Source of the DNA: Escherichia coli
GTDB lineage: Bacteria > Pseudomonadota > Gammaproteobacteria > Enterobacterales > Enterobacteriaceae
Strand: one strand, 5' to 3'
DNA: 64,000 bases
Assembly: GCF_003991155.1 (NCBI RefSeq)
Contig: NZ_CP031293.1
This document shows positions 27,001 through 30,000 of the stretch, piece by piece (position 1 is the stretch's first letter; every line of letters starts with the position of its first letter). Position numbers: made by a program.

Positions 27001-30000
27001 ATGTCATGGACAACCATGAAGTTAACGCCCGCCGCCAGCATTTTAGACAGGGCTTCAACAACCGGGCCAATGCCGAGAAATGCCAGAATAGCGAGGATCA
27101 TCCCGATGATGCCTGCGGAGAAGTTATTCACCAGCATTTCAAAACCGGATTTGATCTTACCGTCTACCCAGCGGTCGAAGTGCTTAATGCACCAGCCGCC
27201 CAGCGGACCTGCAATCATAGAACCGAGGAACATCGGCATGTCTGCGCCGACGATAACGCCCATGGTGGTAATGGCACCGACTACGCCGCCACGTTCGCCG
27301 CCTACCAGCTTACCACCGGTATAACCGATCAGCAGTGGCAGGAGATAAGTGATCATCGGCCCGACCAGCTTCGCCAGCGTTTCGTTCGGTAACCACCCTG
27401 TTGGAATAAATAACGCGGTGATGATACCCCACGCGATAAACGCGCCGATATTTGGCATCACCATGTTGCTGAGGAAACGACCAAAGCTTTGCACTTTGAT
27501 CTTAATATCGGATGACATAAAAACACCCCTTCTTATGTTTGCTGTCGCGCAGGCTGGAAGCCCGAGGTTTTTTGTTAATGTGGCGGCAGAGGTAGCCGGA
27601 CCTTGTAGATACTGCGAAATCTGGCACTGAATCGGTTAACTGTCCAGTCAACGGCTTTTTGTGTGATATGAATCACATAAATATAGGGGGTAGAGAGGTA
27701 ATTGACGTGATGTGCATCACAAAACTCTTGTGTAAAAAAGCAACAAGGCGGCGATTTTCGCTAAAAATGGCATTTAAATGTGAGTAATGTCACATTTTTG
27801 TTTTGTTAGTTTGTTGAATCTTTGTGATCTGAATCACAAGATATTTTCTTACGGCGTTCACCTGATGTGATCTGCAGCATGTTATGCCTTCGTCATAAAA
27901 TCGTTATGTAACTAAGCAACTCATCACCTCTAAAAATTATTCTTCGGTGTTATGGCGAGAATCGCCAACCCGGATTATTGTCAAAATATCAGCCCGACTC
28001 CCATCTGGCTGCCAGCCAAAAACAACACTGATAAACGTGAATCCGAGGCAGATATGTTTCTAAACTACTTCGCGTTGGGAGTGCTGATCTTCGTCTTTCT
28101 GGTGATTTTTTATGGAATCATCGCGATACATGACATCCCTTATCTGATTGCCAAAAAGCGTAATCACCCCCATGCCGACGCTATTCATACAGCGGGCTGG
28201 GTGAGCCTGTTTACTCTGCATGTTATCTGGCCGTTCCTGTGGATCTGGGCGACGCTCTATCAACCGGAGCGTGGCTGGGGTATGCAGTCACATGTTGCGT
28301 CGCAGGAGAAAGCGACTGACCCGGAAATCGCCGCACTTTCTGACCGGATTTCCCGGCTGGAGCATCAACTCGCCGCCGAGAAAAAGACTGACTATTCCAC
28401 GTTCCCGGAGATCTAAATATGGATCTATTGATTGTTTTAACTTACGTGGCGCTGGCGTGGGCGGTCTTTAAAATCTTCCGCATTCCGGTAAATCAGTGGA
28501 CGCTGGCGACGGCGGCGCTGGGAGGCGTGTTTCTGGTGAGTGGTTTGATTTTGTTGATGAACTACAACCACCCTTACACTTTTACCGCGCAAAAGGCAGT
28601 GATAGCGATCCCCATCACGCCACAGGTGACGGGAATTGTTACTGAAGTCACCGACAAAAATAATCAGCTTATTCAGAAGGGCGAGGTGCTTTTTAAGCTC
28701 GACCCGGTTCGTTACCAGGCGCGAGTTGACAGACTTCAGGCTGACCTGATGACGGCGACGCATAATATAAAGACGCTGCGCGCGCAGCTCACTGAAGCGC
28801 AGGCCAACACCACCCAGGTTTCAGCGGAGCGCGACCGTCTGTTTAAAAATTATCAACGTTACCTGAAAGGCAGCCAGGCGGCGGTGAATCCGTTCTCGGA
28901 ACGTGACATCGACGATGCGCGGCAAAATTTCCTCGCGCAGGACGCGCTGGTGAAAGGCTCGGTGGCGGAGCAGGCGCAGATCCAGAGCCAGCTCGACAGT
29001 ATGGTTAACGGCGAGCAGTCGCAGATTGTGAGCTTAAGAGCGCAACTTACTGAAGCAAAATATAACCTTGAGCAGACTGTCATTCGCGCACCGAGCAATG
29101 GCTACGTTACTCAGGTACTGATCCGCCCAGGTACATACGCAGCTGCCTTGCCGCTACGTCCGGTGATGGTTTTCATCCCCGAGCAAAAACGGCAAATTGT
29201 CGCCCAATTTCGGCAGAACTCGCTGTTACGTCTGAAACCCGGCGATGATGCGGAAGTGGTGTTTAACGCGCTACCTGGGCAGGTGTTTCACGGCAAACTG
29301 ACTAGTATTTTACCTGTCGTGCCAGGCGGTTCTTATCAGGCGCAGGGGGTATTGCAATCATTAACGGTCGTGCCCGGCACGGACGGTGTGCTGGGAACCA
29401 TTGAACTGGACCCTAACGATGATATTGATGCCTTACCCGACGGCATTTACGCCCAGGTAGCAGTTTACTCCGACCATTTCAGCCATGTTTCGGTGATGCG
29501 GAAGGTGCTGCTAAGAATGACCAGTTGGATGCATTATCTTTATTTGGATCATTAAATAATATTAATGTATTGAATCTTGTAAATGTGGTTGAGAGCAAAA
29601 AATTGCAAATACAGGACATGAGAATTCGCTGTTCAGGCAGCGAAACTCGTGCCCTTTTTGTCTAGTCCACTGAGAATATAAACGCTCCTTTGATGCCCAA
29701 AAGTGGACATTTAATTATTTCTTTTTACCTTGAGAGAAAACTGTTTCGGTGTAATACCAAAATAGCTCTTAAAGTTTCGAATGAAATAAGATGTACTGGT
29801 ATATCCAACATCATATGCAATACTATTAATATGTTTTTCAGTGGATGTAATCATCTTTGCTGCATGATGCATTCTGATATCTAACACCAACGCATTAAAG
29901 TTATTGTTTTCTTTTTCAAGTTTTTTTCTAATCGAAACCTCAGACATATGCAAAATATCCCTAAGATCCATTAACTTCCAATTTCTTGATAAATCTGATT

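Follow-up and report, generated by a model that had tools for sequence, protein, structure and literature searches.

Positions 27611-27881 of the 64 kb stretch of Escherichia coli DNA analysed here, which we call the window, very probably represent the orthologous and intact promoter-operator of the mtlADR operon, which is read on the minus strand and is predicted to be activated by CRP and to serve, through the same array of CRP sites, as the docking platform of the repressor MtlR. The feature is already known: it is the mtlADR CRP/MtlR operator, present in full and configured as in K-12, and we found no evidence that contradicts the promoter-operator reading. Five CRP sites are present at the relative positions published for K-12, the bases of their recognition pentamers are the same as in K-12, and their spacing is maintained across a broad range of species; site spacing is in this system an operator code for the repressor MtlR.

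The CRP sites and the mtlA promoter

An exact search of the whole 64 kb window for TGTGANNNNNNTCACA (TGTGA-N6-TCACA) returned three matches, at 27662-27677, 27779-27794 and 27823-27838, against a mean of 0.07 expected by chance, and none of 100 dinucleotide-preserving shuffles of the sequence reached three. Allowing a single mismatch yielded a fourth strong site, CGTGATGTGCATCACA at 27706-27721 (9/10), and no other site scoring at least 9/10 was found anywhere in the window. The first-pass annotation had described three full matches and one half-site upstream of mtlA, between 27662 and 27881. Those three are precisely the ones returned by the exact search, the half-site is the TGTGA at 27866-27870, whose 16-mer scores 7/10, and the two coordinates bound the array exactly; the number of sites nevertheless has to be raised from four to five, because the one-mismatch search adds the 9/10 site that had been missed.

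Under the K-12 numbering, and with no strand assigned to any site, CRP5 (27662-27677, 10/10) is the promoter-proximal site, centred at 27669.5 and thus at -58.5 from the inferred transcription start. It is followed by CRP4 (27706-27721, centre 27713.5, -102.5), which scores 9/10 and reads CGTGA-N6-TCACA on the plus strand; by CRP3 (27779-27794, centre 27786.5, -175.5) and CRP2 (27823-27838, centre 27830.5, -219.5), both 10/10; and by the weak, distal CRP1, TGTGATCTGCAGCATG (27866-27881, centre 27873.5, -262.5, 7/10). The centre-to-centre spacings from CRP5 to CRP1 are 44, 73, 44 and 43 bp, and all five consensus scores are as in K-12. The five sites of the K-12 mtlADR promoter-operator were reportedly described by Ramseier and Saier in 1995. 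In the recent account of this operator the K-12 sites CRP1 to CRP5 are placed at -262.5, -219.5, -175.5, -102.5 and -58.5, with spacings of 43, 44, 73 and 44 bp, and CRP1 is scored at 7/10 and CRP2 and CRP3 at 10/10 (Lee et al., NAR 2026; PMC13421365). The five centres in the window therefore coincide with the published relative positions, the absolute numbering resting on the K-12 transcription start.

The location of the array in the divergent mtlA-yibI intergenic region is given by the ORF map, by the RefSeq annotation of matching genomes and by the K-12 annotation. On the minus strand lie mtlA (25605-27518), encoding the 637-residue mannitol PTS enzyme IICBA, mtlD (24362-25510), encoding mannitol-1-phosphate 5-dehydrogenase and identified from the annotation of the collinear genome CP033635 mapped by BLAST, and mtlR (23775-24362), encoding the repressor, whose docking target is the complex of CRP with DNA. 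The operon thus encodes both a cognate MtlR and an MtlA with a IIB domain; the crp gene is outside the window. The divergent neighbour of mtlA is yibI (28054-28416, plus strand), which encodes a DUF3302 protein.

The core promoter elements were positioned from the published K-12 numbering. Subtracting 58.5 from the CRP5 centre at 27669.5 puts the probable mtlADR transcription start at 27611 on the minus strand, to within 1-2 nt (PMC13421365). The same CRP5 reference places a putative -35 hexamer, TGGACA, at 27641-27646 and a putative extended -10 element, TGcCAGATT, at 27618-27626, both on the minus strand, the -10 hexamer matching TATAAT at only 3/6 positions. The CTGGACAG block around the putative -35 is conserved across species, and the GTGC block (27624-27627) shows a conservation of at least 95%. 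Between the two hexamers is a Cra (FruR) box, ACTGAATCGGTTAA (27626-27639, plus strand), which matches the regular expression RSTGAAWCSNTHHW, which we take to be the Cra consensus, at 14/14 positions. The 5' untranslated leader of mtlA (27519-27610, minus strand) contains a Shine-Dalgarno sequence, AAGAAGGGG, at 27526-27534, and an Rfam scan of 25400-28200 with E-values up to 1 returned no RNA family in the leader or the spacer. The mtlA promoter was missed by a generic sigma-70 scan, in keeping with a weak, activator-dependent -10, and the single promoter-like hit of that scan is on the plus strand; the accompanying terminator scan found no terminator.

Comparison with K-12 and other E. coli genomes

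The mtlA-yibI spacer is 98% identical to that of MG1655, with 16 differences in approximately 535 bp, comprising 15 SNPs and one 1 bp indel. Alignment with the K-12 mtlA promoter shows every CRP pentamer at its K-12 position, with none of the 50 pentamer bases changed, and the indel is near yibI, outside the array, which itself contains none. No change from K-12 was found from the mtlA start codon to position 27649 (27519-27649), an interval that covers the -35, the extended -10, the Cra box and the leader. Thus the window shares with the K-12 operator its mtlA/yibI spacer, the five sites at 44/73/44/43, all of the core elements and MtlR itself (195/195 residues, 100%); it differs by the indel and by ten SNPs within the operator (27611-27881). 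Five of these SNPs are in N6 cores, among them 27670 in CRP5, 27711 and 27714 in CRP4 and 27787 in CRP3, CRP2 being identical to K-12, and one is at 27650. MtlA is identical at 634 of 637 residues, with substitutions at residues 153, 473 and 476.

The SNP at 27650 is a C-to-T change relative to K-12, at a position just upstream of the putative -35 that is variable across species. It creates the hexamer TTGACT (27646-27651), which overlaps the TGGACA, and no suitably spaced -10 follows this hexamer. Because N6 SNPs can modulate CRP affinity, and given the SNP at 27650, the quantitative output of the promoter could differ from that in K-12, and these changes may retune its strength.

Of 5426 complete E. 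coli genomes, 5404 have a match to a 701 bp query that takes in the whole mtlA-yibI spacer (window 27400-28100), in every case in sequence annotated as mtlA/yibI. The query is 100% identical to the chicken isolate CP033635, with which the window is collinear over 40.7 kb at 98.7% identity. Most of the genomes match at about 97.6%, and since only 151 of the 5404 are at least 99% identical, the spacer allele of the window is a minority variant.

Two structural variants were seen in the vicinity of the array. The spacer between mtlA and mtlD (25511-25604) is 94 bp in the window and 229 bp in K-12, the latter having an extra 135 bp insert with a copy of the hairpin motif CCCTCTCC...GGAGA on either side, where the window has a single copy; the insert presumably contains two inverted REP-like elements (a BIME). 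The second variant is in E. coli GPEC1054, also a chicken isolate, where an IS21-family element (istA/istB, ISSso4-like; locus L123, 3456-6300) is inserted between CRP2 and CRP1. The insertion point corresponds to about 27854 in the window, so that CRP1 and yibI are separated from the rest of the operator, and this isolate provides a natural test of the dispensability of CRP1.

BLAST comparison with 9 kb of K-12 sequence shows that yibH to yibL form one contiguous core block, corresponding to 29553-22908 in the window. On one side, K-12 lacks a segment of about 5.95 kb that lies in the window between lldP and yibL (16953-22907) and contains a 4.65 kb gene for a YadA-like trimeric autotransporter adhesin, with internal repeats that are 78-86% identical (about 19276-20337), together with a DUF3251 gene. 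On the other, no match to the yibU/yibV/yibW side of K-12 was found in the window beyond yibH (past 29553), and the sequence from 29554 to approximately 41700, ahead of yibF, contains a frameshifted HTH regulator (a pseudogene), a sigma-factor-like gene, a PefC/AfrB-type chaperone-usher fimbrial operon and an S6-family (SPATE-like) autotransporter peptidase. The DNA without a K-12 counterpart begins at about 29554 and ends at about 22907, leaving the operator untouched by either island, the distance from the array to the nearest accessory DNA being about 1.7 kb towards yibH and about 4.7 kb in the other direction. The first-pass annotation had proposed that the core regulatory region is intact despite this nearby DNA, and both the K-12 identity of its elements and the distances to the islands bear this out. 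A strain with large islands flanking mtl-yibIH has therefore kept the K-12-type mannitol circuit, with its CRP array, MtlR geometry, Cra box, MtlR and MtlA, although this matters little beyond annotation.

Operator spacing and MtlR docking

The mtl operon of K-12 requires CRP for its activation, a dependence that has long been established, and among the clone sets recovered by genomic SELEX with CRP, that of the yibI-mtlA spacer ranked second in abundance (Shimada et al.), a result relevant to the comparison with CRP binding data that the first-pass annotation had suggested. Mutation on the K-12 chromosome has shown that loss of CRP2, CRP4 or CRP5 abolishes both expression and growth on mannitol, that mutation of CRP3 reduces both slightly, and that CRP1 is dispensable and poorly occupied (PMC13421365). 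MtlR has no DNA-binding domain, and it gives a supershift in EMSA only with two CRP dimers that are 43-46 bp apart, optimally 44-45 bp (PMC13421365). The CRP3-CRP4 pair, 73 bp apart, does not recruit MtlR, and either this pair or a pair from malK gains MtlR binding when re-spaced to 44 bp; according to the same account, the length of the spacer alone matters (PMC13421365). Induction in K-12 involves MtlR being sequestered at the membrane by dephosphorylated MtlA, dephospho-HPr competes for MtlR and restores repression when glucose is present, and both Cra and Fis add repression at mtlA, where Cra and CRP act together. The description of this region by the first-pass annotation as a heavily CRP-dependent promoter is thus correct in so far as CRP is essential for activation in K-12; it is incomplete in that the array is also a docking platform for MtlR.

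The spacings of 44, 44 and 43 bp in the window fall in the docking range of 43-46 bp, and the CRP3-CRP4 spacing is 73 bp. By its identity to K-12, the operator in this strain would be expected to bind the same proteins and to be regulated in the same way. CRP bound to CRP5 at -58.5 would recruit RNA polymerase to a weak promoter in a class-I-like manner, and activation would also need the upstream sites CRP4 and CRP2, and to a lesser extent CRP3, with the weak CRP1 being dispensable. MtlR would repress by bridging the CRP4/CRP5 (44 bp), CRP2/CRP3 (44 bp) and CRP1/CRP2 (43 bp) pairs, and would leave the CRP3/CRP4 pair (73 bp) unbridged. When mannitol is present, dephosphorylated MtlA would draw MtlR to the membrane and the operon would be induced; with glucose present, dephospho-HPr would send MtlR back to the operator, and the Cra box, placed between the two promoter hexamers, may confer further repression.

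The spacing can be evaluated in a survey of 120 species loci that was anchored on a conserved motif in the mtlA coding sequence, and not on the promoter, and in which 108 loci had at least 400 bp of upstream sequence. Sites scoring at least 9/10 at exactly 44/73/44 are present in 88 of these 108, all in the Enterobacteriaceae and Erwiniaceae. In a 90-sequence alignment, with column conservation expressed as the frequency of the commonest base, the pentamers average 0.955 against 0.585 for other operator DNA (p = 4e-18), and the N6 columns, with a mean of 0.555, do not differ from background (p = 0.31). A site scoring at least 7/10 and lying 42-46 bp upstream of CRP2 occurs in 49 of the 88 species, compared with four of 88 at a control offset. 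CRP1 is therefore real but loosely constrained, in line with its dispensability in K-12. The exact spacing in 88 of 108 loci independently supports the published spacing rule, the weak fifth site is half conserved, and both results provide a sanity check on the MtlR docking model.

The N6 cores hold five of the 16 differences between the window and K-12 in only 30 positions (p ~0.002, a post hoc value). Among 13 phylogenetically independent pairs of close species, divergence is 1.0% in the CRP pentamers (5/520), 11.0% in inter-site DNA (209/1906), 14.9% at four-fold degenerate sites of mtlA (352/2370) and 19.9% in the N6 cores (62/312), so the cores diverge about twice as fast as inter-site DNA, near the four-fold degenerate rate. 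Our reading is that the uncontacted positions drift in a roughly neutral way and that inter-site DNA is under mild constraint. Diversifying selection on the N6 cores was considered and rejected, since they are no more variable than background in the 90 species and close to the four-fold rate in the pairs. Two stretches outside the pentamers are at least 95% conserved in approximately 90 species: AACAAA at 27810-27815, near the midpoint between CRP2 and CRP3, and AAAAT at 27843-27847, just upstream of CRP2. If the sequence of the inter-site DNA matters, this would suggest an element there that is contacted or bent within the MtlR-CRP complex, or a site for Fis or some other factor. That inter-site DNA matters by its sequence too, or that the N6 and 27650 SNPs retune the promoter, or that the array acts on yibIH, is a set of possibilities that we regard as unlikely.

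Taken by itself, additional control of the divergent yibIH operon by the array seems quite unlikely. The distance from CRP1 to the yibI start codon downstream of it is about 180 bp, and both promoters are often under the control of CRP sites that lie in a divergent spacer, the yibI-mtlA spacer being a very strong CRP target (Shimada et al.); moreover, a cloned fragment of UTI89 from upstream of yibI gave a reporter that was induced in urine. However, one urine-induced DFI-seq fragment appears, on our reading of the table column, to carry only about 144 bp of the sequence upstream of yibI, which would exclude all five sites. The positions of the sites are locked to the start of mtlA and not to that of yibI, the sigma-70 scan gave no consensus promoter for the yibI side, and a search of the literature revealed no evidence of CRP control of yibI.

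The classical view, in which mtlA is activated by the summed effect of the CRP sites and MtlR has its effect elsewhere or by a route other than these sites, is very improbable. It accommodates the long-established CRP dependence of mtl, and the constraint on spacing could reflect helical phasing alone, the upstream sites being needed for activation. It does not fit readily with an EMSA supershift by MtlR that demands two CRP dimers 43-46 bp apart and with the creation of MtlR binding by re-spacing (PMC13421365), nor with the exact 44 bp spacing kept in 88 of 108 species or the complete conservation of MtlR in the window. As for a chance cluster of motifs without function, a lone TGTGA half-site is indeed common by chance, but three exact sites where 0.07 are expected, positions identical to those in K-12, and pentamers that are almost invariant in 90 aligned sequences while their N6 cores drift make this reading vanishingly improbable, the conservation data ruling it out.

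Relationship to other CRP-based operators

The CRP/MtlR operator described here can be compared with several other systems in which multiple CRP sites are found. The malK (malK-malE) region of E. coli is similar in having several CRP sites, four in malK, upstream of a sugar-transport operon, but there CRP2 and CRP3 are 34 bp apart, and MtlR binds only after re-spacing to 44 bp (PMC13421365). The mtl operators of the Pasteurellaceae and Vibrionaceae share with that of the window clusters of strong CRP sites upstream of mtlA, including a pair 43-44 bp apart, although the 44/73/44 arrangement is absent from both families. Layouts of the Vibrio type vary, with pairs 43-44 bp apart in the Vibrionaceae and their relatives, and the six Pasteurellaceae loci (L022, L047, L065, L090, L091 and L098) have three sites spaced at 40/44; these sites are approximately 80-200 bp upstream of the mtlA start codon and are perfect in five of the six, the exception being L091 with scores of 10, 9 and 9.

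A parallel in mode of action is seen with CytR and CRP at deoP2, where the repressor likewise exerts its effect by contacting, protein to protein, CRP dimers bound in tandem on the DNA. At deoP2 a CytR DNA operator is flanked by tandem CRP sites with a spacing of about 52-53 bp, and a CytR-type operator was rejected for the array in the window, which has spacings of 43, 44 and 73 bp. CytR itself binds DNA, whereas MtlR, having no DNA-binding domain, recognises the CRP pair by its geometry only.
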